A stretch of 64,000 nucleotides of DNA from Trichoplax sp. H2 (Eukaryota), in NCBI GenBank assembly GCA_003344405.1, contig NOWV01000155.1, positions 62,001-126,000 on the forward strand. Direction: 5' to 3'. Each line of letters starts with the position of its first letter. The first letter of the stretch is position 1. Shown piece by piece: positions 33 through 62,108 of the stretch. Position numbers and translations under genes: made by a program. Below the pieces are notes generated by a model that saw only the letters and a list, made by a program, of their open reading frames with translations, had not been told where the DNA came from and made no database searches.

Positions 33-3000
33 CTTTGTGAATAGGTGTGAAAAATTATGTCCTCTTCTCTTAAATATATCTACACTAGAAATGCAATAGT
101 TCAATTACAAATAAATAAATAGTTACAGTTTCATCCATTATAGCTTACCCATCATTTGTATCGTGATCTTCGTTACTTGGATTAATCTTTTCAACTTTTG
201 CAGTATTTTCTGGAGCACTGACATTTTCGCTGCTATCTTGAATTTTTTTAAATTTACTCGAACTTTTCTTCACCGCAGCTTTTTCTGTGACCGTATATTC
301 CTAACCGTTACAAAGTATATATATAAATATATGTATATATTATAAAAAGCATGTTATACTATTCAATTAACGAACAAATTATTCGATCTTTTCAATAGCT
401 TTTCAATCGTACAACATTCTATTATTGATGCTATCGATTTAATTACTGTAATGAATAAATTATTTGGTATTTTGAAGCTTTTTTTGTTGTGAGAATTTGA
501 TATATACTTTATTAAACAAATAATTCATATACCTCAAATTCTGGCCACCTCGTTTCCATTCTCGCTCCAAATTGTTCAGCAAAACCACATAAGTCGCGCC
601 CTGAATCAGCCTTTTCAATAGTTTGTAGCATTTCATTATATATCTTGGAAAAGCTAGAATGATTGATAGATAGAAAGTATCAAGTCAAACATTTGCAAAG
701 CATAGGTTAAGCATCGATAAAGCATATAAACCATAAGCTATACTAGTTATTTTTGATCACGCAATATAGAAATATAGGCGTTAAGAACATATTGGTAATG
801 ACGTTATATCCATGTTTACGATATTGTAATTTATTCGATTCGAAGTACTTACTTAGGATTATCAGCAATATTAACACAATTGTGAATTACTACCAACATT
901 TCTTTAAAAAAGATTAACCGATCTTCTTCAAACGCTTGCCATCTATCGAATTCTTCGGTCATGCTCTTTTGATAACTGTCATTAAAAGTTGTTAAATCCT
1001 CTAATCTTTCTTTATATCTGTCTTTTGCTCGACTAGCTTCTTTACTGGCCTTATCAGCTTTGTCACGAATTTTCTTAACTTGATCAGCAGCCATATTGTT
1101 ATCGCTTTCAGCAGTATTTAGTTGTTTATTATTGTTATCCTCAGCCTTTGCGGCTGAATAATACTCTTTCTTAGCTTTAACCACTTTCTCAAAACGTTTA
1201 GCCCAAGGCTTTTGGATACGGCTAAAATTATCATCACAGTCTCTAGTTTCTTTGTAGTGCATCATTGACTTATGATAATGGTCTTTTTTCCATTTTTTGA
1301 CAGAGTCATAAGCTTTACTTAATAATTTCTCTCTAACGTCAGCGTGTAAATTAGCTACCTCATCAGCTTCAGTAAAGCAGGCCTTCCATGATTCTTCCAT
1401 AGTACCATATTCAGGGCCATTTTGGATACTAGAGCGCCAGTCAGATGCCCAACGCTTTAAACTTCGTGCATATGCACGCTCCAATTCCATACGATCACGA
1501 ATCATAGCTAGCATATCATCGCATAACCTATAACAGCGTTAGATCCACTGTTAGTAACGACATATAATTAAGTCTTGTTACAGTAACTTTCAGAAATTGG
1601 TGATTTTATAAGCATGATAACGGCATTGCGATCATGTTGAACATCTTAAAAAGCCTATTCAATTAGTACCATATTTATAGTGGTTCTCTATTTTGCTGTT
1701 ACGATCATCGTCTCATTCTCAAAGATAGAAATTATCTATTAGTATAGCAATCGAATCAACAACTAAATCGCAATTTTGGAAGTGAAATATTTGTAAACTT
1801 GGCATGCAAAATGTTCTTGTTAGTATTGTTATGATAAAGTGATAATTATTCTACTGTAATTTATTCAGTTTATCAATAGGCGTAATTCCCTATATTATGC
1901 GCCATTCAACGTAAATCAAATAAAGCCCAACCAAAATGACGATTAGCGACCGGTTTCTAAGTTCTACTTAAGATGAAGCTGTACATACATTGATGAAAAT
2001 TAGCAACGGTTAATGTTGATAAACAATTTATATTTATGCAATCTTTGATAGAAGATTATGAATATCAATTGATAATTACTGAACAGGTGGATATCCTTTC
2101 CTACGGCTACTAAAAGTATTCTTCTTGCTGCCAATTATAAAAAGAGATCCACTGAATGATCAACTATGCTATACATGCGACCTAGGTCTACATTATCATT
2201 CCTATTCTTCACATTAAAGATATAACTAATACGCATATTAGTTTATAAATAGGAATAAGCAATTTGAAATCCCATGGAATTAATTCTTAGTATTATACAC
2301 CCTAGACCGTGAACTACCGTACTCCCTTTACCTCTAATAGTTCACAATTAGGCCTAGATCATCTTTCCTGTTATTCATGTTCAAGGAATACCGTAAATAA
2401 AGCATACGGAATGAGTTTATCATCAGCAATAGTCAATCTTAATTCACATGGACAGAATTTTTTCAACATAATTTGCTCTAGGCCTAAATCATTATTCCTC
2501 TTATTTAAGATTTTGCGTCCATCAACAGGAATAGCCAGTTTCAATGGACATGAAATTCATTTTAACATTATTATTTATCATAGGACCAAAGGATTATTTC
2601 TTTATTCCACATTTCCACTCTACATACAAGCCCATGTATTTAAATATATATATTAGATCAGGATCAATTGCTAAGCTGAATGGAATAGCCTCAGGTTAAT
2701 ATGCTAGTAACAGCTACTAAAATCGATTTATTATTGGTCATTAGTCAATCTATTCTCCAAAACGACAAGTATCATGGTAGCCCATTCAGACAGAACATAA
2801 TCTACTACGAATAAAATGAATTTCAACAGCATCTCCATTATTCCATTTTAAAGTAATTGAAAGGCATGAATTAAAATTACCCTCTACAATGCAGCTCTAT
2901 CAATATTGGTTATAATTAGTAATGAATACAATATGAGAAATTTGTACTCTAGCATGCCTCTAGGTTATAAGGGTTTACTACTTTTAAAACGTGTCATTCA

Positions 3001-6000
3001 AATTCTATTTTCCCGTCGTTCAGTGATATGCAAGCTAAAATTAATCAATATAACGAACAAGATGGAAATCGTGCCTAGAATACATTCACAAGCGTTATAG
3101 TTTCGTCCCTATCTGAAATTACTAGTATTTTTGATCGGTCCTTTTCTTTTTCGACTGATCATGACTTCTTTCGCAATCTGGGTATAACCCTAATGTACTG
3201 TATACTAAATAGTAGATCCTCAATTGTAGATGTTGGATTTCGACATGTTGACCACTACAGTACAAATAAGAACTAGAATTTTTAGGCTTGAGTTATAGAG
3301 ATAGTTCAGTTCTTTTAACAATATTTTGGACACTGTAATCAGATTAAAATCGAGATTATTAACAATACTATTTCAGTGCTAGGATCTTCTCTCTAACGAG
3401 AATGTTCTCTCCCGTGAATACATCAGGATTCATTGACAACCATTAGTATCCTACTGCTGGCTATGATTTCTTCTGTCAGTAATAGAATATTCAATTCATT
3501 TTATTCACTTAAATTAAGATACAACCATTCGTATAAGCAGACCAAACCAGGTTACAACATATACTAGTATTGGTATATCAGTTTATAAGGCTATCCAATT
3601 ACAGCCTTACAGCCATCACAACCATTTGCTCTTAATATTGAAGCGGAAACACTGCCTCCACTTTTAGATAGTCCTCCTACATCAGGAGAATTTGTCAATG
3701 CCAGACCGTTGGCTTAACATTTTGTCAACTGTCAGTAAGGTCCTGCATGCCATCGATATGTGCAGGTTAGTGTCTAGATAGTAATAATCGTTTAATTCTT
3801 CTTACGCAATAGAGTGATCATAGCGATTGATCTTAAATGAATTATTTTTGACCTTTTTGCCAATTAATTAACTAATTCTAATTCAATTTAATCTTTAAAT
3901 CTGAGATTGGATAACAAAAATTGGAAAAAATTATCCAACTCCAATTCGTGTTGTATCTAGCGCCAGTCTAATTGTAAAAGCCTAGAGGGTAATGATAGTT
4001 TAGAAATAGGCCAGAAAACTATAACCATAAGCCGAAGCAACGGTTTATAAAGCCACTTACAGTTTATCGTACTGTACACCTGTCTATTTTTGATCGCAGT
4101 AGGGGTAGAAATTGATTATCGCAATAAGAAAGTCATGACATGATTGCGTGCTATTTCAATTGCTAACACCATGCGGTAATAGCTAAACAAATCTACTGAC
4201 TAAACATTAACATCATTTACGGATGGAATTATTAAACAATTCCACAGCAGTAGTCAAAGGACAACTTTAATATGTACCAATGGCTGTATACTGTACTATA
4301 AATGTACACATTTAGAAGAGAGCCAGTTCTGATTACTAATATGTTTAGTCAGTATTCTCAGCGAATTTTTTTTATCATCAAAAGCGCTGCCAATGACAAC
4401 CTAATCAACATTGCAAGTGAAGGAATTCAATCTAGCGTTATTCAATAATGAAATACGAATAATTAACTGTTATTATTACAATGCAATCCAGGCGTAAAAG
4501 CTAACGTCAATATTGGAGAACAGAGAAGGTTGTGGAAATTTCTTACTGAAGAAAGTCAAGAAAATTTCCAGTTGACTTGAACTTCATTTTTGGTCAATAG
4601 AAGCAGGAAAAACAATCTGGCGAATTCTTTTCAAGGATCGGATAAAATAACAACGTCAACAGTACGGATTATATCGTAACGACTGGTTCATTTTAGTAGT
4701 TCAAAGCAATCAACTTGGCCATTGGTAGCCAAGAAAGCGATTGCATTGGTGATAGAGTATTAAATGTCAAGTTTGATGTTGAAAAAGTCAAGTACAATGA
4801 CATCATTTAGAAATCAGTCATAAAAGATTAAAAGCGAACAAATTAGGGAAAGGCATGACTAGCTCGCCAATCAATCCCAGATGTGAAGATTCAATTCCCA
4901 ATCCATTAAAGATAGGACTATTGTAACGACCACTTTGATTCATTTTTAATAGTTCTATATAATAATAATCAATAGCAACACCACAAACTAATGAAGTAGT
5001 GCAGTTAGCTTCTGGGATGGATCAACTTATATGTATTAGCCAATCGGAATGCATTCAAATCATTCCAATATATAAATACGGTAGATTAATTTTCGCTACA
5101 ATCTCCAGCAGGGATGATCGCAATCCCGCTCTTTGTCGATAACACACAGTATGCAAGAATCAAGTATAGAATCAATAAGAGTTTCCATCCCAGTAAGCTA
5201 AAGTTCTTTTTTAATGTAACTGTGGTTGAAAGGTTAGAAATCAAGCAAAACTGTAAAATCATTCTTCGTCCCGAGTGGAATGAATCCAATGTCAATGCCC
5301 GTCGCTATAACTGATTATTTTCTATTACTAATAAATCCATCGTTGAGTAGGCATCCTAGAATCATTAAGGCCAATTTACCTCTAAGTAGGATGATTTGCA
5401 AACCTCTCGAGTGGACAAGTAAAGTTTTGGATTTATGTTGCTTCAAGTTTTCTGACGCTATTAATTGATGAAAGGTTAAAAAAGTAGCACAAACTAATGC
5501 TTCATGTCCACCATGATCTACTTGTATCCAACTATTGCAGAAGGGTTAAATCGCATCATCGCATTTTACCTCTTTCTATAGTTGTCAATTACATCGAAAA
5601 CGGTGCAGTTGCCATCATCAAATAAACTTATATTATTAGAGCCAACTGATCTATCATGGTTATGATTTGTAACAGACAAGTTGAGTTGCAATCGAACGTA
5701 TTCCATTCTTATCAATTCCATATTCATCGGCTGTTGTCATTTTATTGTACAGTACTGAGTAACACTTGCTTTATATTATCTAAAATTATTCTTAGATAGG
5801 AGTCTAATCAAGAATAACGCAACAATGTTATCGAATATATTCCACATTTCCAGTTTAAACATCGATTCGAGCCTTATGCATCCAATCCGAGTACGTCGCA
5901 ATGATGTCATTGTTGATTGGCTAGTCAATATGTTCAAACGGTTTGATGCTAATTATAATTATTACGAGCGGGATTAACTCTGTGATGAGCATGATTCGAG

Positions 6001-20903: not shown

Positions 20904-23900
20904 TTAACGAGGCCTTGGCTTAGGTACAGGCCGCCAACCTGGCGGTTTTGGAGGAGCATGTGGACGCTTCACGGGGATAGGGCGAGCATTGGCAGATTTC
21001 TCAGATTGGCCATCAAAATTCGGACGAGCATCAGCGTAATCCCCAACCTTATTGTCTGTCTGGTCACCATAACTGAGATTTGTGTTACTCTCGTTGGTAG
21101 TGGAATACTCTACCGGCCGCGGTACACCTGACAATACTACGTTATTTGCTGGCTCTGAGATTTCGTGATCATCTACATCAATAGAAATGTCACTTCCACT
21201 ATCATTCTCGATATTTAGCTTACTAATCATTGCCTCTTCATTATCACTAATAGTTTCAAACTCATAGTCCGCTGGATTGGCATTTTCATCACTAGAAGAG
21301 ATCACATCGTCATCATGAATTTGAGTATTCTTATGATACTGAAGATTATCACCTCCTGTTGGTAACGAAGATCGTGATAGATCAACTGCTTGATCATCTT
21401 GGTCAGAAGAATCAGAATTGTAAATTTCAAATTGCACTTGGGATGCTTTATTCATGTCTTGACCATCGCCACCATTTTTACCCGCCGATCGATGATAATC
21501 TTCATCATCACTGGAAGAATTGCTATTATAAGCTTGAAATTGGGTGGTATGCATTTGTGCAGTATCACTAATATTATCTTTAGATCGTACTGGCAACGGT
21601 GGTGGTGCTTTACGACTGATATTAGCCACAGAGGAATTACTGCTGCTAGTTTGAGATACTGTATTTTCATTTCTTTGTATAATATTGTTATTAGCATTCT
21701 CCCGGTAAGGTGGTGGTGGTGCTTCGGATACATTCATTGTACTAGCATACCAAACAGTTAGATCCTTTATATCATCCGAGCTCGATCTTACAACTCCATA
21801 GTCTTGTCGCTGGTGCGATTGATTGCTATTGGCATTGTAATCAAAATCTACTAGAGGGGTAGTCTCTCGCTGTAAATTAGGCCTTGGCGGTCGTGACGGA
21901 ATCGATTTGTCTACCGTAGCCGGCCTAGCAGGTCTTTCCGGAGCAGGTGGTTTCTTTGGTACGGCTGCTGGACGTGCTGCCGGAGGAGGCGGCCGACGAG
22001 GAGCTTCTACGGGTGTAGCTGTATTTAGCGATGACGATGACTTTCCGCCAAAATCGGATGAGCTCTTTGATTGAGGTGGTCTGCCAGGTCTTGGAGGAGG
22101 CGGTGCAGGCCGCTTTATACCAGGGTGCCCAGGAACAGGAGGGCTTTTCTTCTGACCTTGTAGCTGTTGTTCCTGAGCATCGCTCATGAGCCACAAATGA
22201 GACTGTGGTATATTTAGATCTTGGATATTAGCTTCATATGCATCTACTGTATTCTCATCATCATCTAAATCGTAGGTTAATCCTGTTGGGTAAAATTTTA
22301 AATAAACTCGTTAATCTATAGATTCTATTAGATTAATTATCAATATACAGGCACGGTAATTCTTACATTAGCAAACAATTAATCAAAAGAAGTACCAATA
22401 CAAGTATACCGATAAAACGATCACTACACTCGCAAAATTTCTTTATACAATAATAGAAAGAAGTAGTATTGACGTACCCTCACTGTCCTTCCGAAAATCG
22501 CAACGAAGGGAAACTAATGTCTCCTTTCCATCGATCTAAATAGTAACATTTATAAATGTACAGTACATAGTGTTAATAATAGAGTGATAAAAGATAGCTC
22601 TGCAAAATGATGTATGCAACAATACATTTGAAATACTAACAATAGTCTTTTCTAAGATATGAGCCGCTTTAATTGCATCATGACCATTCCAGTACGTTGC
22701 AATTGCGCTACGATAATCTATGGACCTGAAATAGAAAAGATATTAGCCGTCATTAATTATTGAACCGGATACTTATTTAAGATTTCGTTTTGGTAACAAC
22801 AATAACTAAACGTTACCTAATCATTGCAATTTCACCAAAACGCCTTAGAGTAGTATATAGTCGGAAAGTAATAGGTAACAATTTTGTGGAATTAGTTGCT
22901 GACCGATCCGAAATAACTTTTACAAGAATGGACAATGGGAAAGATTTCTGACAAACGGTGTTTGTTTCAGATACATAATTCTGAAAATCAGACTCCATTA
23001 AATTTTGAACGTTAACATCGATAATTGCAGCTACTGGTCGGTGATCAGAAGTCTTTAATTCAGTTCTATCGTAATAAACTAAGTGACCTTCTTTTCGTTG
23101 AGATTCAGTAACATGACTTGTTGTAATCTCTTCTAAATGATTTATGTTCATTAAATCAAGTTTCCTACTAAATTTACGATACGTTTTACTGCCATCCACT
23201 TCATCATCGCTTGAACTGTCATAGCGTTCAGATGGCTCATCACTGATAACAGCTTTATTATTATTAGCTGGTTCACTTGAGCTATCCAGTTTATCAATAC
23301 TTTTGGTGTGGCTCACATTTCCACTTCGAGCTGATTTAAAACGTCTAAATAATTTGGACGAATTTTTTATATGTTTCCACATAACTCGATCTGTCCAGGC
23401 TGGAGTTCGCTGCTTCTCGCTAGTATCGTAATCATCTGAAAATAAATCGTACTTATATGTTGGAGCAAAATCTGGCTTTCCTTCCTTGAAACCTATAAAT
23501 GACTGCAAGCAGTATTATCAAATTAGTGGATAAGGCTGGCACGACGCAAATAAATCATATCATATTTCTAAAAAATTTATTATTACCAATCCACTCTCTC
23601 GCGATTTGATTAATTGGTCCTCTTCTTGCATAGTAAGCCAGCTATTATTCTCGATCATTTTCAGTACCTCATCTCTTGGTAAATCGATACGATAATTTAA
23701 ATCACCACACCAAAAAACATAATCATGAGAATCAACCAGATAAGCCTGTTCAATTAATTCAATTAATCCCATCCATTAGCATAGAGTAAATTGTGATAAA
23801 AATATTTCCATTATAATAATGTACAACAATGAATTATTGGTTAACATACCATCGAACTTTTATCGCATGACGTAATTCCAGAATACTGCAAAAAGGAACA

Positions 23901-26900: not shown

Positions 26901-29839
26901 TTTTTAATTTATTCATATTTAGCTACTTGTTCAGTTTCGGCAAAATTGGCGCAATTTCCGTAATCGTCAATCCCTCTGACATTGAAGCGAGTGCCATAGC
27001 GATCACAGCTTATTCGTGATAAAATACAAATTCGAGCTTGTTTACCATGGCAAAACAAGGTTCTAATCTCTATCGATCCACAAATTACTTGGATTAGCCA
27101 ATTTTCACAGTCAATACCATACTGATAAAATGGTGACTGCATGCCACGATTCCTAGTAAATTAAGAACCATTTTTGTTGAATTAGGATGCAACAATAATT
27201 TATGGTAAGATAAGATAGAAGCAAGGACGATCGTCTATTCTTATTGGTGGGATAATGGAAACAACACGTTGCATAAAGGCCAAGGGTATTACATGGTAAA
27301 AAGTATATAATTACGGCTACATACCAGTAAAATCGATCATCAGATTTGAGCTGACGAGCTTGTCGTTGCAAGTTGAGTGATAGGTCATAACAATTTGTTT
27401 CTTTACTATAGGAAAAAAAGAATGCGCCAGAACCCAAGATTTTTCTGATTTCGTTTATGCGTTCAGCGTCAACATCAGGTAAATGATTTCTTGCTGTTTG
27501 GACTACTTCGACACCAGTAATGCGATAGATTTCACTTTCGAATATTTTTCCCACTAGAAAATGACTTTTCACAAGTATAAGGTATTGCACACCTTCAGCT
27601 AAAGGAAAGATATATTATGCAATAAAAATGGAATTATTTCTTGATTTCATTGTTTTGCACCAGATCATAGATCAAATTGAAAAAATAGAAATGATGTTGT
27701 TTTATAATAGTAGTCACTGAGTAGTTAGTACACGTTTTACTAGTTCTATTATTTAACCATTCATGTTATAATCCTACCCATTCCGTGTACAATTATAATT
27801 ATTGTTCATAAATGAACATCAACTGCAAAAGGAGAATTAACTACGCTATTTTTATGTCAAGACTGAAAGGAGTTGCAATGAAGGATGAATGCTTGAATTA
27901 GGCATCATGTGCGTAGCATTGGCTTGGTCCAACTCACTATCCTATGGCCCAAATGATCGTACAGTTCTCGAGTCATGTTTTAAATTGCAATACTTCATCC
28001 TTCCATGATGTGATATCTTGATTGAATATCATACGGTAGTACGATTGCATTATCATAATTTAAATTGATTATTATCTAATCCTTGTATGTCGTATCTTGA
28101 TATTGGTACGTCTAAACTGCTTATTTTCTCTCTCTATGCAATATCTTCATTTAATATCATACTAGAATTGGACTATTATTCAATTATTGATTTCCTCTCT
28201 TCATGCAATGTCTTCATTTAGTATTGAAGTTTAGCAAACTTGTCTTGTGATATTGTCAACGAGGCATTTTATCTATTCATGTCATATTTTATTCATTACT
28301 ATTGTACTGTCCTCAAGTCGTACAGTATTATGGCATTATTAATATCGTCTACATCTCTTCATGTAATATCTTAACTTAATATTACGCTGTCGTCAAGTTG
28401 TACTATAACATACTTAATGTTGTAATTCATCTCTTCCTATCCTGATGAACGATCGTCCAACCAGTATTATAGCATTGTCAATTGGTATTTCATCTCTTCA
28501 AGTAACATCTTACTTAATTTACTATTACACTGTTGTCAGATTGTATTCTAGATAGTATCGTTGATGTTGTATTTCATCCTTGGATGTCCTATCGTAATCT
28601 AATATACTGTCGTCAAGTTTGTATGATGGTATTGTCAATCGCTTATCATTGCATGTCTTATTTCGATTTCCTATTTTACGGTCAACGGCATTGTAGCTTT
28701 GTCAATGGGATATTTCATCTCTTCACTTCATATCATCATAAAGTTTGTATTCGACTGTAACACTTACAACTGTGTTATTTAATCTCTTCATATCCTATTT
28801 CTGGTTAATCTGCTACAGTAGTATAGTTGTAGTATGATATCCTTACATATTTTATCTCTATCTATAGCGATGGTGATCTGTTGCAGTTTGTCAAAGCATT
28901 TGATATCGTTATCAATTGGACTAGAAATGGTATCCATTTTAACTTACAGTGTAAACTCTTGATGATTCCAAGGCAACCGTAGACATCGCGTACCTTTTCA
29001 TAATGCCGTTTCAATCCATTGGTTTCTTCACAAGCTAATAAAGTGAAAGTAGAAAGAAGTTTATTACATGCATACTGACGAATCTTGACGCGTATGTTAA
29101 CATTTGATAGTATTGGTCATTGGAAATTGCCGAGTACGATACTTGTCTATCTAGAGTAGAGTAGAGTATTTCTTTTCTTGTAGTGGTTGTAAGTTCTGAT
29201 GATTGTACCGAAGTAATCCATCAGCAGAGTTGATTTGCGAAGCAAGGTAAACTACGATAGCTTTGTACTCTAATCAAAGTCTACGTCAATAAATACTCAT
29301 TGCATGGTAGCATTGGCGACATTGTATCAAGTCGATCTTGCTAAGTAATAGACTGGCAGTGGTAGAGCTATTGTTGGAATTTTCTTGCCTTGATTGTAAG
29401 TTCTGGACGACTGTACTGATTGAAGGCAATGTTCATTTGCCAAAGAAAAGATGGACTGACTACAGCTTGCTATTATGGTATGATGGCAGCAACAAGAGGG
29501 TATGAAAGTCAGCGCAGTAGTGCTAGTTTAGCTGTTGTTGCTTTTCTCTAGTATTGACTGGAAGTTATGGTTGATCATGTTGATTCAGGGCAGCATTAGT
29601 TTGCAAAAAAAGACTAGACTACAGCTTACTATGGCATCATAGTATCGACAAGACTATATGATAGGCCTATGACAATTGAGAGAGGAGCAATTAGCAAGGA
29701 CAACGATTGGAAACGACTTACAGCATTCCACGATAGCACCATCAGCAAATAATAGCGAACAACCAGTACTTTTGTTGATATAGAGAACAGAAAGTGGATG
29801 AATTCGTTGATAGACTGTAAAGTCTTGAGTGAACACCAT
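20904..29839 (-). CDS. SYNJ1: Synaptojanin (Sac1 domain, inositol 5-phosphatase, RRM-like segment, proline-rich tail), multi-exon
   Basis: N-terminus [15 protein letters not shown]; Sac1 motifs [43 protein letters not shown]; 5-phosphatase motifs [28 protein letters not shown]...PAWTDR, SDHRPV; Pro-rich last exon 20904-~22283. SYNJ1 versus SYNJ2 cannot be resolved. Confidence 0.95.
27995..28870. repeat. Highly degenerate ~65-75-bp tandem array in synaptojanin intron 2
   Basis: Recurring TTCATCTCTTCATG.AATATCTT...ACTGTCGTCAAGTT...GCATTGTCAAT motifs at ~63-75-bp spacing. Confidence 0.65.
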
Positions 29840-39228: not shown

Positions 39229-40926
39229 TTAAACTTTTATCTTAATTAAATAGCGAAGCCGCACTTGGCTCTCTTTATAAACTAAGTATTCACTTTGGCT
39301 AAAGTAACTGTTATTGTACTGCGATCGAGTGATTGGTTTTCCTTGTGGTACAGTAACGGTTTTGCCATCAATTGTTATGGTAACATCCTTTTTAGGATCA
39401 GGTTCTGTCTTGCCTCGAGCAACAACGGAGTCATGGCCTTTAGGAGCAGCAATTAATGAACTATTATCTCTGGTAATAGAGTGTTCTTTACCTAAAGCCA
39501 CTTCAGCTAAAAACATAATACCAATATTTCTAGCTACCCCTATATAACCAATAGATTTACTATTCTCTGAAGCAAAATAAATGCCCTGACCGACTCTACC
39601 ACCACTGTGGGGCATAATACGTAGGCCACTTTTTAAGATTGCAGCAACAACAGCAACATTGGTTCCATGCCACAAAAGTCGACGATTTTGAATTTTATCA
39701 TGAGTAGCAAATCGTTGTCCTTCACCCTCTCTGTCAATTTCCCAAATTCCAAGGATATCTACCGGTTTACTACTATAATAATAGTGACCTCCTGTCTGTC
39801 TTAAGTATGTCTCGATCATCTTGTATGTCTCATCCTTGCGATCAACAACAGATAATCTAGCTTTGAGTGTCTTGTAATTGGCATCCAACGGATGATCAAC
39901 CACTTCAGCTTTACTCTGGTTCTCTTCCTTTTCTTTTTGTAAGCTTTGCGCAACAACAATATCTCCCAAAACAATTAGCATGTCTAACTTTTCTTGCAAA
40001 GTTTCCTGATTTCTTATCACAGGAGGTACTTGTCGACCAAAAGAGTGAGGAATAACCGTATAGAATTGAGATGATAACTGAGATAATACTAAGTTCGATT
40101 TTGCATTGGTAATGGCATCACGGATCTCTTCCAGGACGTCATAGCCACGAGCAATTTGCGCTTTACTTAACTTACCCAGTGGCATTTTTTTAGTATCAAT
40201 TTTAAAGGTTTCCATAGCTTCATTAAACATATCCTGATCAAAAATGAAGCTAACCAGCGATTGAGTTTGTTTATCAAGGGTACATGGTCGTACATTCTTA
40301 GTCGATACTGTGGCATCCTTCTTGACTACCACTTGTTCTTCTTCATCTTCTTGCTCGACCTCGATCAATGTATATTTACCAGAATGAGCGACAAAGTTAG
40401 CCCTATCGGACCAATTATTTTTTGTCTTGTCTTTAAATTTTTTATTAAAAGCACCCTCGGCGGAGCTAGTATCAGAAAATGGGCCCAAAAGAGCGTTCTG
40501 TCCATCTTCACCAACACGTCCCCATCGTGTCCAAACGTAATAAAAACGACCCTGTTGGACCATTTGAATCACATAATATTTATTGTTATTGCCACCAATA
40601 TTGGTTTGATTCAGCATACAATCGAAATCTTGATAGACTTCACAAGGACGAGGTCCGCTGTACAACTTATCCACCGTAGTTGATTTCTTCTGTTTGCTTG
40701 CAGAAGCATCCTTTTTAAATTCTTCAAAGGCTTCCTTAACCGTTTTAAGCTTTTTATCAGCGCTACCATTTTGATCATCTTCTTGCAATCGTAATGCTAA
40801 ATCGGCTTTTTTACCCGATTCATCCAGTCCACGTTTCTTGCATTCTTTCTTCAAATCAGTTACTTTTAATTTATTGTAATCCGTAGTAGAATCATCACTG
40901 GCTGCTGCTTTTCTTTTTCCAGGCAT
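39229..40926 (-). CDS. PARP3: PARP3-like ADP-ribosyltransferase with N-terminal SAP domain; single coding exon
   Basis: From ATG 40926: SAP (LKVTDLKKECKKRGLDESGKKADLALRL), WGR (LNQTNIGGNNNKYY...WGRVG), helical domain (MPLGKLSKAQI), catalytic LLWHGTN...MPHSGGRVGQGIYFASE...SEYLVY with H-Y-E triad. Confidence 0.93.
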   Translation of the reverse strand: MPGKRKAAASDDSTTDYNKLKVTDLKKECKKRGLDESGKKADLALRLQEDDQNGSADKKLKTVKEAFEEFKKDASASKQKKSTTVDKLYSGPRPCEVYQDFDCMLNQTNIGGNNNKYYVIQMVQQGRFYYVWTRWGRVGEDGQNALLGPFSDTSSAEGAFNKKFKDKTKNNWSDRANFVAHSGKYTLIEVEQEDEEEQVVVKKDATVSTKNVRPCTLDKQTQSLVSFIFDQDMFNEAMETFKIDTKKMPLGKLSKAQIARGYDVLEEIRDAITNAKSNLVLSQLSSQFYTVIPHSFGRQVPPVIRNQETLQEKLDMLIVLGDIVVAQSLQKEKEENQSKAEVVDHPLDANYKTLKARLSVVDRKDETYKMIETYLRQTGGHYYYSSKPVDILGIWEIDREGEGQRFATHDKIQNRRLLWHGTNVAVVAAILKSGLRIMPHSGGRVGQGIYFASENSKSIGYIGVARNIGIMFLAEVALGKEHSITRDNSSLIAAPKGHDSVVARGKTEPDPKKDVTITIDGKTVTVPQGKPITRSQYNNSYFSQSEYLVYKESQVRLRYLIKIKV

Positions 40927-41966: not shown

Positions 41967-42560
41967 GATTGGCATCATTTACTGGGACCAGATGTACAAC
42001 CTATGTAGTAGGCAACGATTTTCAAGATTGCATGTTAACATAGGCACAGTACTATACTGCAGTGATAGCGCATTGGCATCATGTGCTGGGACCGGATGTA
42101 CATTGTACTGCGCAACCCATGCAGTAGACAACGATTTTCATGATCGCATTCGGATAAATGTATGTGCATAGTACTGCAGTAGGCAGCGATCTTCAAGATT
42201 GCATGTTAACATAGGCACAGTACTATACTGCAGTGATAGCGCATTGGCATCATGTGCTGAGAGCGGATGTACAACCTATGCAGTAGACAACGATTTTCAG
42301 GATCACATTCGGATAAATGTATGTGCACAGTACTGCAGTAGGCAGCGATTTTCAAGATTGCATGTTAACATAGGCACAGTACTATGCTGCAGTGATAGTG
42401 CATTGGCATCATGTGCTGAGACCGGATGTACAACCTATGCAGTAGACAACGATTTTCAGGATCGCATTCGGATAAATGCATGTGCACAGTCCTGTAGTTT
42501 TATAGCTCATTGGCATCATGTGCTGGGACCGGATGGACATGGTACAACCTATGCAGTAGA
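41967..42560. repeat. Tandem array, ~160-170-bp unit, about 3.5 copies, upstream of PARP3
   Basis: TTCAAGATTGCATGTTAACATAGGCACAGTACTAT... starts at 42021, 42192 and 42351, with partial flanking copies. Confidence 0.9.
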
Positions 42561-43624: not shown

Positions 43625-45236
43625 ATAATAATACTGTAGGCTTGGCCAGGAACTGACCAGAAAATGGCCGCCATTTTAAAATAATAAATGGAATGCAATA
43701 ATCAGCGAAAATATCTTGATCCATTCTATTCGAATTAGACTAATAGGTTTGATTTGTACATGGGAATCGAATCGACTCAAAAGGTATACTGACCCTTTAA
43801 TCGTTCCTTGTTTATGAGACTATGTAGGGAAAATGAATATTTTCCCAACTATTTCAATTGCTGATATTTATCGATCGATCTTAGAATTCAATCTCAAGTG
43901 AAAGCCAATTTTCTAATTGCTCGTATAGTACTCTACCAGCCATAGATAGAGAAGACCTGGACCCACGCGAAAAATAATAACAAAAAGATAATAAAAGGAA
44001 ATAAAAAATATAACACTAAAAATCGAATATATACGCCGCGCGAGCGCAAAGAAATATATATATCGTTTCAACTCTGTAATTTTCTATATATTTTTATGCA
44101 ATAATGTATGCGCGATTCGCGATTATTGCATAAATATATATAGAAAATTNNNNNNNNNNNNNNNNNNNNATAATAATACTGTAGGCTTGGCCAGGAACTG
44201 ACCGGAAAATGGCCGCCAGTTTAAAATAATAAATGGAATGCAATAATCAGCGAAAATATCTTGATCCATTCTATTCGAATTAGACTAATAGCTTTGATTT
44301 GTACATGGGAATCGAATCGACTCAAAAGGTGTACTGACCCTTTAATCGTTCCTTGTTTATGAAACTGTGTAGGGAAAGTAAATATTTTCCCAACTATTTC
44401 AATTGCTGATATTTATCGATCGATCTTAGAATTCAATCTCAAGTGAAAGCCAATTTTCTAATTGCTCGTATACTACTTTACCAGCCATGACTTGAAGAAA
44501 TGAATAAATTATTATAATAAAGAATGGCGAGATACCTTTTGTCTTCTACCAATTTGACTTAATAACTACATTGCACAGTTGTAGAGTATGCTTTCCTCTC
44601 TAATGCTATATGCGTATATACAGCAGAGTTGCAGATCTACTGATATGTAGTAACTGTTTTAGCCTAATATTCTCTATTCGATAAACCAGCAATGCTAAAA
44701 GAAGAGAAATAATNNNNNNNNNNNNNNNNNNNNAACACTAAAAATCGAATATATACGCCGCGCGAGCGCAAAGAAATATATATATCGTTTCAACTCTGTA
44801 ATTTTCTATATATTTTTATGCAATAATGTATGCGCGATTCGCGATTATTGCATAAATATATATAGAAAATTACAGAGTTGAAACGATATATATATTTCTT
44901 TGCGCTCGCGCGGCGTATATATTCGATTTTTAGTGTTATATTTTTTATTTCCTTTTATTATCTTTTTGTTATTATTTTTCGCGTGGGTCCAGGTCTTCTC
45001 TATCTAGCCATGACTTGAAGAAATGAATAAATTATTGTAATAAAGAATGGCGAGATACCTTTTGTCTTCTACCAATTTGACTTAATAACTACATTGCACA
45101 GTTGTAGAGTATGCTTTCCTCTCTAATGCTATATGCTTATATACAGCAGAGTTGCAGATCTACTGATATGTATTAACTGTTTTAGCCTAATATTCTCTAT
45201 TTGATAAACCAGCAATGCTAAAAGAAGAGAAATAAT
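43625..45236. other. Probable assembly bubble: two haplotypes of one locus placed in tandem around two 20-N gaps (44150-44169, 44714-44733)
   Basis: 43625-43943 matches 44170-44488 (about 10 substitutions); 44489-44713 matches 45012-45236 (about 4). The gap-bounded middle piece lacks the palindromic insert. Confidence 0.8.
43944..45005. mobile_element. ~340-bp fold-back (palindromic) non-autonomous element with 6-bp TSD AGCCAT, split over 43944-44149 and 44734-45005
   Basis: Termini AGATAGAGAAGACCTGGACCCACGCG...CGCGTGGGTCCAGGTCTTCTCTATCT; AGCCAT at 43938-43943 and 45006-45011; empty site with a single AGCCAT at 44483-44488. Confidence 0.88.
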
Positions 45237-47341: not shown

Positions 47342-48739
47342 CTAGCTACAATGCTGTTCCTTGCTTCCTTCTGATTGTAATTCCATCGTATCCTTGGATT
47401 CTATTTCGATATAATTCCTACCGTTTAGAATATCTTCCTGGAAAGCATCATCAGTAGACAACAATAATTGAGCAATTGGTACTAATTCTTTATCAATGGA
47501 GTGTTTACTCAAAGACGAACATCTATACATGATTGTATCCAAAGAGCAGCTTAGTATTGCAGCATTTTCGGCAATAATTTGATGAGAATAACCCATTTTC
47601 TTTATTAAATAATCACATTTTCGTTGAAGAGAATTTTGACTGTGTCCTAAAATGGATGGATTGAGGTCGAACATCATTCTACTTTGCTTTTCCGTAAATT
47701 TGAGCTGAATTAATGAATGAAGTTGATTAGATAGAACTTCATGACCATGTTGCAGATAGGCAGGATTGGATACCCATATCCGGCGTATAAAGTCTATATC
47801 AATTCCTAAACTTTGATAATATCCTACTGTCTTGGCTAACGATTTTGTAGTCATTGCAAATGCTTTTGGATAGCGTAACATGATGAAACCTATCTCAGCA
47901 TTGGATAGCCTAAGCCAATGGTTCAACCAATTTGCAATATTAGCTATAGCAACGTAAGTTAATAGTAGTATTGAAGGATGATTCGATATTATATCTTGAA
48001 TGCTAGCTTTATCAGATTGATATAAACTAATCACGTCAATGACTTTTTTCAATTGTGGAATAGGTAACAATAAAATAGAAGTATGATGGGTGATTATATT
48101 ATTGATATCCAAAGGGCTTAGACCGTTATCCTTCAATAACTTCACCGTATGACGGAGATTTTGAGCGCCAACCAGAATTAATCGTGGACGCTTTATGATA
48201 ATATCCCATGCTTTAAATTTATTAAAATCGCGAGACTGTAAAAAGCTTAGTAGATTTTGGGCATCTGATTCTTGATACGTCAGAAGGAAAGAATGCTCGG
48301 AGAGTAGCTTACTCAATTTGCTTTCAGTTAAGCCTAAACTTTTAAGAAATACTAATCGAATCTTTAAAATATCTTCGTTCATGTTTAGAATTCGTGGTCT
48401 ATAAATGATCATTTGACAAATAGAACTCTTTTCTATACCTGCTTTCAATAATATCCTTATTTTTGGTTCAATGACGTCTAGCGACCAAATTATTCTATTG
48501 CGAAAAGTTTTATTTACTTTGCCGAGGTCGACACCTAATGATTGTAAATAGATTCTGCTTTGATCATCTAATGATGCATTTTTACCGGAGAAATAGGTAC
48601 GTCGTACTAAGACTATTGGATAGCATTGGGTGCATCGACTTCCAAGTAACTGCCCACAATGAGTATACATCGTTTTCTTAAACAGGTATCCAGTCATACG
48701 TGTAAAATTGGCTTGAAATAACGAGCCTATGATCAGCAT
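47342..48739 (-). CDS. mTERF-family mitochondrial transcription termination factor-like protein, intronless (start ATG uncertain)
   Basis: ~32-35-aa helical repeats with a conserved Pro (MIIYRPRILNM, IIIKRPRLIL, IISNHPSILLL, IMLRYPKAF, MFDLNPSILG) and FLKSLGL; basic, presequence-like N-terminus. Confidence 0.85.
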   Translation of the reverse strand: MLIIGSLFQANFTRMTGYLFKKTMYTHCGQLLGSRCTQCYPIVLVRRTYFSGKNASLDDQSRIYLQSLGVDLGKVNKTFRNRIIWSLDVIEPKIRILLKAGIEKSSICQMIIYRPRILNMNEDILKIRLVFLKSLGLTESKLSKLLSEHSFLLTYQESDAQNLLSFLQSRDFNKFKAWDIIIKRPRLILVGAQNLRHTVKLLKDNGLSPLDINNIITHHTSILLLPIPQLKKVIDVISLYQSDKASIQDIISNHPSILLLTYVAIANIANWLNHWLRLSNAEIGFIMLRYPKAFAMTTKSLAKTVGYYQSLGIDIDFIRRIWVSNPAYLQHGHEVLSNQLHSLIQLKFTEKQSRMMFDLNPSILGHSQNSLQRKCDYLIKKMGYSHQIIAENAAILSCSLDTIMYRCSSLSKHSIDKELVPIAQLLLSTDDAFQEDILNGRNYIEIESKDTMELQSEGSKEQHCS

Positions 48740-49736
48740 TGTGCCAGGAAAGTTTGCCTTCAACGATTACGTGTCAATTTCTACGTATTCTTGCTATCAT
48801 CCCTACTACCAGCTGATTTTATCCTACAATCTTGCAAAGTTCATTTAACACAATATTATGCATTTTTTTTTTCAATTGAAGGAGAATGAAGTCATTGTGC
48901 ATGACTACAGCAGTATCCTAGGGGGGAAATAAGCAAAGGGAATCAAAGATTACCTGATTCTATCCAGTCTGCAATCAACTTGCGACCATCATGGACATGA
49001 GCCAAACCACAAATCGGCACACTAAATGATCTCGTACCCACGTCGTCTACGTTCCAAGATGGAAGATGGCGTCAGTAGATGGCTAATACTAGTCTATCTT
49101 GTACAGCTACGATACTAACAATATTATCCTATACTAGAATAGTTATTCTGTATATCAAATTAGCCTATGCCACTTGGATCAGCTATGCAATACAGCCAAC
49201 GATGATTTATTTCAACACTTTGTGGAAGGATTTTCTACTGCAGCATGCTTCTGAGCTCGCTGTGGCTGCTTCGTAGGATAGTGTATGAAAGGGTAGTCTA
49301 CTCCTCTACAGGACTATATCGTGTAATACAGACTGACAAGATGGAAGGACATGGAGCTGATCAAGCCTAGTCTAGTTTTTCACACCCTACCAGTTAGCCT
49401 ACTGTAGCCAGTGATGGAAAGTAGTGTATGGGACCTACAAGTAGCAACAGGATGTGGAAAGGCAGTATGCTGCATTCAGCTGCGGCAGTCCAGCAGAGGT
49501 GCAAGCTAGCAGCTGCAAGTTCCAGCTTTCCAGCTCGAGAAATCGATCCAATTGGCAATAGTGGCGATAGTACAATATTATTCAATCGATGAGGATCAAC
49601 ATGCAACATTGAAAAGGGGAGAATACTAGCGAATTGATTGCTATACTACGCTACCAGTGGTAGACGGTTTTATTTTCTGGATAGGTGTGTGCTGCAATGA
49701 TATTGAGCGCATCCATTTTCAACGTGGAAGCTTAGC

Positions 49737-50216
49737 GACAGAGATCAAGAAAGAAAGCAACATTCAAGGAGCCTACAAGCAATCTAGAGGTATCACCAGG
49801 GACAAACGTTAGTCAACGCATTGGAAGTGATTTGTAATTGAAGCCATCGATCATCAGACGGAGATCGAGAAAGAAAGCAACATTCAAGGAGCCTACAAGC
49901 AATCTAGAGGTATCACCAGGGACAAACGTTAGTCAACGCATTGGAAGTGATTTGTAATTGAAGCCATCGATCATCAGACAGAGATCGAGAAAGAAAGCAA
50001 CATTCAAGGAGCCTACAAGCAATCTAGAGGTATCACTAGGGACAAACGTTAGTCAACGCATTGGAAGTGATTTGTAATTGAAGCCATCGATCATCAGACA
50101 GAGATCAAGAAAGAAAGCAACACCCAAGAAGCCTACAAGCAATCTAGAGGTATCACCAGGGACAAACGTTAGTCAACGCATTGGAAGTGATTTGTAATTG
50201 AAGCCATCGATCATCA
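49737..50216 (+). repeat. 120-bp x4 near-perfect tandem repeat ending at the start codon of the second mTERF gene
   Basis: Units start at 49737, 49857, 49977 and 50097 with few substitutions; the last A of unit 4 is the A of ATG 50216. Confidence 0.97.
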
Positions 50217-51310
50217 TGTGGCAGCTTGCAAGATCGATCATGACGATCGGCCGGTCATTAAGACATCATCAATGCAATTATGTATGGCTAGCAAAACGAA
50301 GCCACTTCTTTAAAAAGTTGAAAAAAATCACCCCTACAACTCAATATTTATACTCATTAGGTGCTGATGTGGAGAAATTGCTATTACAAAATGCTCCTAT
50401 AACCAAGAAAAACGTAGATATAGTTCAAGATCATGTTGCATTCTTGCAAAATTTAGGCATCAGTGAAGACTCGTTAAGTATCGTTATAACCAAAGGCCAT
50501 CGTTTTATATTAGCAGCAAGGCCTGAATTGCAACAACGTATCGAGTTTTTCACCGATTTAGGCATGACAAAAGACGATGTGGTCGGAATGATTGTTACCT
50601 TTCCTAAATTAATGACGATGCATACAGAACGCGAGATACTACCTCGTATTGATTACTTGCGATCAATCATCTCAACCGATAAAGCGATAGCTACCATCAT
50701 TCAGAGCAATCCGACATCTTTAAATTATTCCCCATTGAAATTGCAAGAGCGAATTGATATTTTCCGAAATGGCTTTTTGAAATTCGATGTTCAAGATATT
50801 GAAAAGATTATTATCGATTGTCCACGATTATTATCCATCAAGAGCAGTTCTTCGACACGTTCCTTACTTTGGTTGAAAAACAATTATTTTAGTCAAGATC
50901 AAATACAACAAATAATCCTAAAATATCCTTGCTTCGTAACCCTCGACTTGGCCAAAATTGATGCCATTTGGAAATGGATGAATAAGACTGGTTTAATCTT
51001 TACTAACAAGAAGAATGATAATCCTCATCGTAAACAGTCAAGATCACTTATTCAACAGTTACAGGAAAAACTGAAATCACCTTATGAAGTTAGAGATATC
51101 GTCGAATATCCGAATGTATTTGGTGAACCCCTAGAAAAACTTCGAAATCGAATTCGATATGTAACCTCATTACAGATTCTTGATGAGAAACTTATTCCAT
51201 TTGAAGATTTAGTTAAATTTGATGATCGAGCATTTGCAGAGACAATAGCGGAATCGAACTACAAAAGTTATCAGCGATTTGTGGCTAGTCAGTCAGTACA
51301 TCCTTGGTAA
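50216..51310 (+). CDS. mTERF-family protein, intronless
   Basis: MWQLARSIMTIGRSLRHH (presequence-like), YLYSLGADV, FLQNLGIS, FFTDLGMT, MIVTFPKLM, IIIDCPRLL, IILKYPCF: mTERF repeats. Confidence 0.88.
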   Translation: MWQLARSIMTIGRSLRHHQCNYVWLAKRSHFFKKLKKITPTTQYLYSLGADVEKLLLQNAPITKKNVDIVQDHVAFLQNLGISEDSLSIVITKGHRFILAARPELQQRIEFFTDLGMTKDDVVGMIVTFPKLMTMHTEREILPRIDYLRSIISTDKAIATIIQSNPTSLNYSPLKLQERIDIFRNGFLKFDVQDIEKIIIDCPRLLSIKSSSSTRSLLWLKNNYFSQDQIQQIILKYPCFVTLDLAKIDAIWKWMNKTGLIFTNKKNDNPHRKQSRSLIQQLQEKLKSPYEVRDIVEYPNVFGEPLEKLRNRIRYVTSLQILDEKLIPFEDLVKFDDRAFAETIAESNYKSYQRFVASQSVHPW

Positions 51311-61664: not shown

Positions 61665-62108
61665 GCATAAAACAAAATCGAACATTCATATATTTAAATG
61701 AAAGCAGATATGAAATAAATAAACTCCAACTCAACAACATTGGCTTATCAAGGACGTATGGCATACATTCTACAACAAGATTAAATAGTAATCCTATGAA
61801 TACGTAATTCCGGATTTATCCTACAATCGGTCTCGTTGCAGTCACACCAGCATAAACATTTCTTGTAAATCATTTCATCCAAACTTTATATTTCCAAAAT
61901 GTTGTTATGTTTATTTAGTTTAATAACATTACATTTTATTGCAATGAAATAAACTATAGGTGACTAATGTACAAATAAAAATAGCTATCTATGATCCATA
62001 CGATAAGAACTTCCCGATGAAGTTGATAATTTTATTGCCACTTCTGCATCTCGTTTTAATGTCTGTCTTCTCATTCGGTGTACTAATTAAAATAGTCTAT
62101 TAAACTTC

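Follow-up and report, generated by a model that had tools for sequence, protein, structure and literature searches.

We analysed a 64-kb window, the whole stretch of 64,000 nucleotides that spans positions 62,001 to 126,000 of contig NOWV01000155.1 in the assembly of the placozoan Trichoplax sp. H2 (GCA_003344405.1). At one locus in this window (43938-45011), a 340-bp insert is bracketed by two copies of the hexamer AGCCAT. The insert very probably belongs to a family of short, non-coding DNA transposons of the fold-back type, which is present in multiple copies and whose members consist of terminal inverted repeats (TIRs) only. The host is an AT-rich, early-branching animal. The element sits on one of the two haplotypes in the assembly, with AGCCAT duplicated around it and single in the empty haplotype. 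A preliminary description of the locus had proposed a mobile element carried by one haplotype only. Both parts of that proposal are upheld, the first by the high-depth ends, the exact boundary at 43944 and the many flanks found in four sequencing runs, and the second within the present assembly.

The window contains only two runs of N, of 20 N each (44150-44169 and 44714-44733). These gaps split the region into three contigs, which hold the left half of the filled allele (contig A), the empty allele (contig B) and the right half of the filled allele (contig C). Contig A, which ends at 44149, runs from the left flank through AGCCAT (43938-43943) into a foreign sequence, of which it holds 206 nt. 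In contig B (44170-44713) the left flank recurs, with one AGCCAT (44483-44488) and, without interruption, the right flank after it. Contig C begins at 44734 inside the foreign sequence, which terminates in CTATCT and is followed by AGCCAT (45006-45011) and then the right flank. The features of the locus are listed below.

43938..43943, unstranded: left copy of the target-site duplication, AGCCAT (GCCA, 43939-43942, if the duplication is read as 4 bp)
43944..44149, + strand: filled allele, element positions 1-206, from the start of the left arm (43944-44105) through the centre to nt 28 of the right arm
43944..43995, + strand: conserved family terminus of 52 bp, which begins AGATAGAGAAGACC and holds the CCACGCG box
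44106..44121, + strand: asymmetric centre, made up of the GTATG bulge and the CGCGATTCGCG mini-palindrome at the hairpin tip
44150..44169, unstranded: scaffold gap of 20 N between the filled-allele contig and the empty-allele contig
44170..44713, + strand: alternative haplotype with the empty site and contiguous flanks (flank identity 97% and 98%)
44483..44488, unstranded: unoccupied target site, AGCCAT once
44714..44733, unstranded: second scaffold gap of 20 N
44734..45005, + strand: filled allele, element positions 69-340, comprising the inner left arm, the centre and the right arm (44844-45005)
45006..45011, unstranded: right copy of the target-site duplication, AGCCAT

The left flank (43625-43943) differs from its counterpart in contig B (44170-44488) at 10 of 319 nt (97% identity), and the right flank (45006-45236) differs from 44483-44713 at 4 of 231 nt (98% identity). 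The divergence of the two haplotypes in the flanks is thus 1.7-3.1%. Because both flanks recur contiguously in the middle contig with one AGCCAT between them, contig B is the empty allele. Furthermore, the last 138 nt of contig A are exactly the first 138 nt of contig C (44012-44149 and 44734-44871). This exact overlap, together with the position of contig B between the two, indicates that the filled allele was broken inside the palindrome and that the empty allele was stacked between its halves. The identical overlap, the AGCCAT copies on both sides and the single copy at 44483-44488 had all been reported in the preliminary description, and the comparison of the contigs bears them out.

Celera-type scaffolders insert 20 N as their minimum placeholder where two contigs abut or overlap. 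The stacked order of contig A, 20 N, contig B, 20 N and contig C amounts to a false tandem duplication, in which about 550 bp of flank are present twice at 97-98% identity.

To reconstruct the whole insert, contigs A and C were joined through their 138-bp overlap. The resulting 340 bp begin AGATAGAG and end CTCTATCT, and they form one inverted repeat, as had been claimed. Comparison of the insert with its own reverse complement yields two arms of 162 nt that form 148 perfect pairs, a single T:T mismatch (positions 149 and 192) and 13 further pairs, and these arms enclose a centre of 16 nt composed of GTATG and CGCGATTCGCG. The mismatch, the 13 bp, the bulge and the tip had been described correctly, and only the length of the perfect stem, previously given as approximately 149 pairs, needs to be reduced to 148. 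The insert folds as a single hairpin with a free energy of -187.8 kcal/mol (DNA parameters); outside it, no perfect hairpin stem in the window exceeds 14 bp. Its arms show no internal repetition. When up to three mismatches are allowed, the terminal 26-mer occurs in the window only at the two ends of the element (0 chance matches expected). There is no second copy within the window, where blastn of the arm plus centre returned only chance matches of 17 nt or fewer.

The insert has a GC content of 30% and carries 22 CpG dinucleotides in 340 bp. For the arm plus centre the ratio of observed to expected CpG is 2.95, compared with 0.89 for the rest of the window, and only 4 of 699 window tiles of 178 bp match its CpG count. 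These values agree with the CpG-rich character that had been ascribed to the element against its host. The 340-bp element has no coding capacity of note, holding short AT-rich open reading frames (ORFs) only, in keeping with the earlier statement that no coding spacer separates the arms.

Other classes of sequence were considered for this hairpin. A microRNA gene was dropped because the Rfam matches, of which there are 23 at E values up to 1, all of microRNA type, lie below the gathering threshold (best 73.2 bits versus 160) and reflect a generic AT-rich hairpin signal. An internal eliminated sequence and a Helitron were likewise dropped, since DNA elimination is not known from the host, an animal, and a target duplication is present.

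The region is present in 14 DNA runs that carry two organism labels and derive from four studies. Logan contigs from four of these runs, one per study (X1, X2, X5 and X6), were aligned to 43625-44149 at 85% likeness, which gave 117 aligned contigs (26, 17, 45 and 29). The flank is represented in each run by one contig with a depth of 20.2-30.1. Every one of the four runs has unitigs, 48-52 nt in length and 203-504 in depth, whose first base is exactly 43944. Depths add up to 1340-3471 at 43949-43966 and amount to 268-578 in the main interior unitig (43966 to 44098 or 44105). Moreover, at least 11 loose-end rows (at least 21 contig ends) fall at 43940-43944 and lead into unrelated flanking letters. 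Relatives of the element depart from its sequence after 43973, 43986 or 43996, and two derivatives carry deletions. In one, 43998 abuts the terminal 12 nt of the right end; in the other, 44124 abuts the terminal 10 nt of that end, beyond which lies a different flank.

As a rough guide, there are 50-115 arm equivalents per unit of flank depth, which corresponds to a few tens of elements, with the caution that contig depth is not copy number and that Logan contigs drop minor branches and can be haplotype mosaics. By the same rough measure, the long-arm interior is present in about half of the elements. Firmer evidence for a family than the depth ratio comes from the sharp boundary and the variety of flanks.

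Past 43943, each of the four runs has a flank contig that reads on into GACTTGAAG, the sequence of the empty allele, and at the sites that distinguish contigs A and B these flank contigs mostly agree with B. Across the run data, the empty allele is widespread. A single contig of 80 nt in X5 (depth 23) is the sole difference-free match to 44100-44149. At eight listed variable sites, the flank contigs (43625-43943) of X1, X2, X5 and X6 each show a different mix of A and B letters, which reflects either several recombinant haplotypes or mosaic contigs assembled from heterozygous clones.

Several points weigh against the conclusion that the insert belongs to a mobile family, or against the details of how we read its ends. 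The figure of tens of copies is rough, for the reason just given. No contig spanning a junction of the filled allele is among those listed for the four runs, a result that does not imply absence given the loss of minor branches from Logan contigs. In principle, slippage between the 6-bp repeats could have removed the palindrome precisely and so produced the empty allele. Only one copy with both flanks is at hand (n=1) from which to read the duplication length, and in that copy 6 and 4 bp are ambiguous; T precedes AGATAG in 15 of the 21 contig ends listed, above the expectation from base composition. Finally, no transposase or integrase partner was identified, and two terminal motifs gave 0 exact matches in viral and metagenome contig collections, which contain no animal genomes as such.

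The breakage of the contigs inside the palindrome and the lack of filled junctions among the contigs listed would both fit an assembly or amplification artefact. The preliminary description had named an amplification fold-back chimera among the findings that would overturn its interpretation. What the run contigs show is repeated ends with a sharp boundary, at high depth and in four runs of four studies. In addition, the local flanks show no relation to the arm, the duplication is exact and the filled-allele contigs are identical over 138 nt. An artefact is scarcely credible in view of these observations.

It is also very improbable that the polarity of the event should be reversed, with an old palindrome that was precisely removed from the 'empty' haplotype when replication slipped between the AGCCAT repeats. 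Precise deletion of long perfect palindromes between short direct repeats is a known event, and haplotypes that are 1.7-3.1% apart have had time enough for such a loss. However, the empty state is found in contigs of all four runs and under both organism labels, an argument that is weak because contigs may be mosaics, and many copies of the family lie in other flanks, for which new insertion is the simpler explanation.

Two placements of the element boundary fit the sequence, an ambiguity that had been recognized from the start. The ends are either AG...CT with a 6-bp duplication of AGCCAT, or TAG...CTA with a 4-bp duplication of GCCA. The AG...CT ends are favoured by the high-depth unitigs, which break at 43944 and not at 43943 in all four runs, and by the 6 of 21 contig ends listed that lack T before AGATAG. 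The excess of T before AGATAG fits a TAG...CTA terminus or a target preference equally, and the same loci were probably counted repeatedly across runs in these 21 ends. We judge the 6-bp duplication to be the correct reading at about two in three.

Kapitonov and Jurka are said to have described in 2006 a 6-bp duplication, an AG-type 5′ end with a CT 3′ end and long TIRs as the hallmarks of Polintons. The present element shares with Polintons/Mavericks the AG...CT termini and the long TIRs, formed by its 162-nt arms, and on the favoured boundary it would share the 6-bp duplication too. In PMC8097293, intact vertebrate Mavericks show duplications of the target site (TSDs) that are 6 bp long, TIRs of 46-1,447 bp and ends of the form (AGT)2//(ACT)2 or (AG)3//(CT)3. 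The proposal that AG...CT ends with a 6-bp duplication follow the Maverick pattern accords with this published signature, and the purine-rich, AG-type terminus AGATAGAGAAG resembles the (AG)3//(CT)3 form.

Given these ends, one tentative interpretation is that the element is a TIR-only 'snap-back' derivative of a Polinton/Maverick or of a polinton-like virus, moved by a retroviral-type integrase, with its arms regenerated by protein-primed or panhandle synthesis. We consider this derivation possible, although the odds are against it. The 6-bp duplication that accompanies the AG...CT boundary, the repeat boundary at 43944 in all four runs and the mirrored differences of the arms (see below) are in its favour. 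Two candidate partners are in print. The first is the set of Polinton fragments in Trichoplax adhaerens, which account for 10 of 139 transposable element hits (PMC2871265). The second is the polinton-like 'Trichoplax MELD virus', in which an S1H helicase replaces PolB and which, according to PMC8502044, was assembled from Trichoplax H2 data.

Other features argue against derivation from a Polinton. Polintons, 12-25 kb in length, are defined as carrying genes for a protein-primed polymerase and an integrase, whereas the present element is 340 bp long, is non-coding and encodes no part of the Polinton gene set (protein-primed PolB, rve-type integrase, capsid, ATPase and protease). At best it would be a derivative that is not autonomous. 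Its duplication length comes from one copy, the sole copy seen whole, and is ambiguous there. The two terminal motifs, as noted above, had no exact match in viral and metagenome contigs, and the Polinton pieces of T. adhaerens are described as degraded (PMC2871265). Lastly, an open-access keyword search of the literature found no description of a short TIR-only Polinton derivative; the mention of 'non-autonomous polintons' that it returned concerns Tlr1.

The alternative boundary would suit a miniature inverted-repeat transposable element (MITE) mobilized by a cut-and-paste DDE transposase, with TAG...CTA ends and a 4-bp GCCA duplication, for example one related to Ginger or IS3EU/GingerRoot. 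The all-TIR form would then have arisen through loss of the interior during gap repair. We regard this origin as unlikely. It draws on the T that precedes AGATAG in 15 of the 21 contig ends listed. Furthermore, according to PMC6057997, Ginger makes up more of both Trichoplax genomes (0.3%) than any other class of DNA transposon. The Ginger and IS3EU/GingerRoot groups, which use DDE enzymes akin to retroviral integrases, resemble the present element in their short duplications (4-6 bp) and in TIRs that range from 40 to 270 bp. Duplications of 6 bp are given for Polintons, 4 bp for Ginger1, 4-5 bp for Ginger2 and 6 bp with TA..TA ends for IS3EU/GingerRoot in PMC10045372. PMC2836005 gives 4-bp TSDs and TIRs of 50-180 bp for Ginger2, and it assigns TGTNR ends and CCGG/CCGT or RTATAY targets to Ginger elements.

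Neither signature is found here. The ends of the element are AGATA or TAGAT and its target is AGCCAT or GCCA, in contrast to the ends and targets given for Ginger1 and Ginger2. TA..TA ends (T at 43943 and A at 45006) leave a duplication of only 4 bp, whereas a 6-bp duplication gives AG..CT, such that the combination given for IS3EU/GingerRoot is not obtained. Each of these families, as described in the sources above, fails one feature. The 6 of 21 contig ends listed without T and the start of the high-depth unitigs at 43944 also argue against the TAG...CTA boundary.

The element is short and non-coding, and it has TIRs, a target duplication, dispersed copies, and filled and empty alleles, as is typical of MITEs and fold-back elements. 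Like the fold-back elements and long-TIR MITEs FB and Galileo of Drosophila and Tm1 of root-knot nematodes, it is composed almost entirely of inverted arms, is non-autonomous and multi-copy, and has derivatives that vary in size. FB, Galileo and Tm1 are related to Mutator or P elements, their duplications measure 7-10 bp and their arms are internally repetitive. In contrast, the present element has a 6 (or 4)-bp duplication and arms that are not internally repetitive.

A further characteristic of the element is the manner in which its arms are kept alike. At 44010, 44011, 44026 and 44070, all aligned contigs in the four runs differ from the present copy. The main unitig, which represents the dominant family variant, differs from the present copy at 6 of 133-140 nt (~4.5%). 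All divergent sites of the present copy lie inside the perfectly paired arm positions 1-148, and the two arms differ from each other by one mismatch in 162, far below the distance to the dominant family variant. Mirrored differences of this kind are impossible by independent mutation, which implies, as judged from these sites, that one arm of the present copy must have been copied from the other. Snap-back or panhandle synthesis, each time the element moves, is one way in which such copying might occur. Alternatively, it might result from repair within an extruded hairpin, or the palindrome might have formed recently from a single arm.

Because the arms evolve in concert, their near-perfect match cannot date the insertion. 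The age of the insertion, claimed to be recent, is bounded only by the split of the haplotypes (1.7-3.1%). The copy is also 6 of 133 nt away from the dominant variant.

If the insert is a member of a TIR-only transposon family, an enzyme supplied in trans would recognize the conserved terminal 30-50 bp. It would make a 6-bp staggered cut in the target and join the AG...CT ends, and repair of the gaps would produce the duplication. In a more specific version of this scheme, the element, self-complementary and made of TIRs only, would parasitize a polinton-like virus or Maverick and would still be capable of movement in placozoans. An integrase would insert it with a 6-bp stagger, and one of its arms would be rebuilt whenever it is copied. 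This version is speculative and we think it improbable. If true, the rebuilding of one arm at each copying would explain the mirrored differences from the family consensus.

Transposable elements have been surveyed in T. adhaerens, where they constitute 0.13% of the genome with no active element (Wang et al. 2010, PMC2871265). The same study reports one MITE family of approximately 20 copies and cites five non-autonomous DNA transposons from Repbase Reports 2009. These elements share with the present family the host group, a small build of TIRs plus TSD, and a copy number of the same order. The MITE family can be compared by description only, as PMC2871265 shows no sequence, TSD or TIR for it (nor sequences for the five other elements), and the terminal motifs of the present element gave 0 matches in its supplements (six files, first 400 characters per cell). 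Because the rough copy numbers are of the same order, identity is possible, and the present family may well be the MITE family reported from T. adhaerens. The designation as a new fold-back family in the preliminary description is therefore doubtful. No Trichoplax MITE or insertion polymorphism of this kind was described in the papers reached by an open-access keyword search for them.

The element lies inside a 6.3-kb gene-free stretch between a PARP3-like gene and an mTERF gene, in a neighbourhood whose genes are those of an animal. It is ~3 kb upstream of the PARP3-like gene (39232-40926, - strand) and ~2.3 kb downstream of the mTERF gene (47342-48766, - strand). The PARP3-like gene is an intronless single ORF of 565 aa with the domain order SAP-WGR-PARP_reg-PARP, in which SAP is N-terminal. 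A protein search with this sequence gave a top match of 78% identity, and the best named matches are from a sponge (57%) and a jellyfish (54%). Among the matches listed, vertebrate PARP3 is recorded without SAP, and sponge, cnidarian, horseshoe crab and lancelet proteins are recorded with it.

Upstream of the PARP3-like gene is a tandem repeat (42113-42498) with a period of 159, 2.4 copies and 94% matches, and with a weaker sub-period of 55 nt. Its units contain CACAGTAC/TGCAGTA-type motifs that are reminiscent of the ACAGT promoter repeats of Trichoplax; no perfect array of (ACAGT)3 or longer is present in the 64-kb window. The mTERF gene at 47342-48766 (- strand) and a second mTERF-domain gene at 50198-51310 (+ strand) are arranged head to head, ~1.4 kb apart, and each consists of one long ORF. 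Farther away, three pieces of a synaptojanin-like gene (20904-22310, 22813-23514 and 27153-27614, all - strand) correspond to a SacI domain, a 5-phosphatase domain and a proline-rich tail exon. The tail exon encodes 468 aa and has no Pfam match.

What is new here is the filled/empty polymorphism, the mirrored differences of the arms and the 52-bp probe. The locus is an example of how a heterozygous palindrome can cause an assembler to stack both haplotypes in tandem, and the false duplication of ~550 bp that results would mislead the annotation of repeats and genes. In Kamm et al. 2018 (PMC6057997), transposons are not considered to be shaping the two Trichoplax genomes significantly. Published accounts give placozoan genomes hardly any transposons and no active ones (PMC2871265; PMC6057997), and the polymorphism stands out against that description. 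Together with the tens of near-identical ends, it indicates that at least one family moved after the haplotypes split.

The 52-bp terminus offers a concrete probe for the enzyme-encoding partner of the family. If that partner is a Maverick or a polinton-like virus, the element would provide a simple system in which to study the recognition of ends by such integrases and the upkeep of identical inverted ends. Should the element indeed be a parasite of such a virus or Maverick, it would be evidence of recent mobile-DNA activity in placozoans and the smallest known derivative of the virus-like Polinton/Maverick class.

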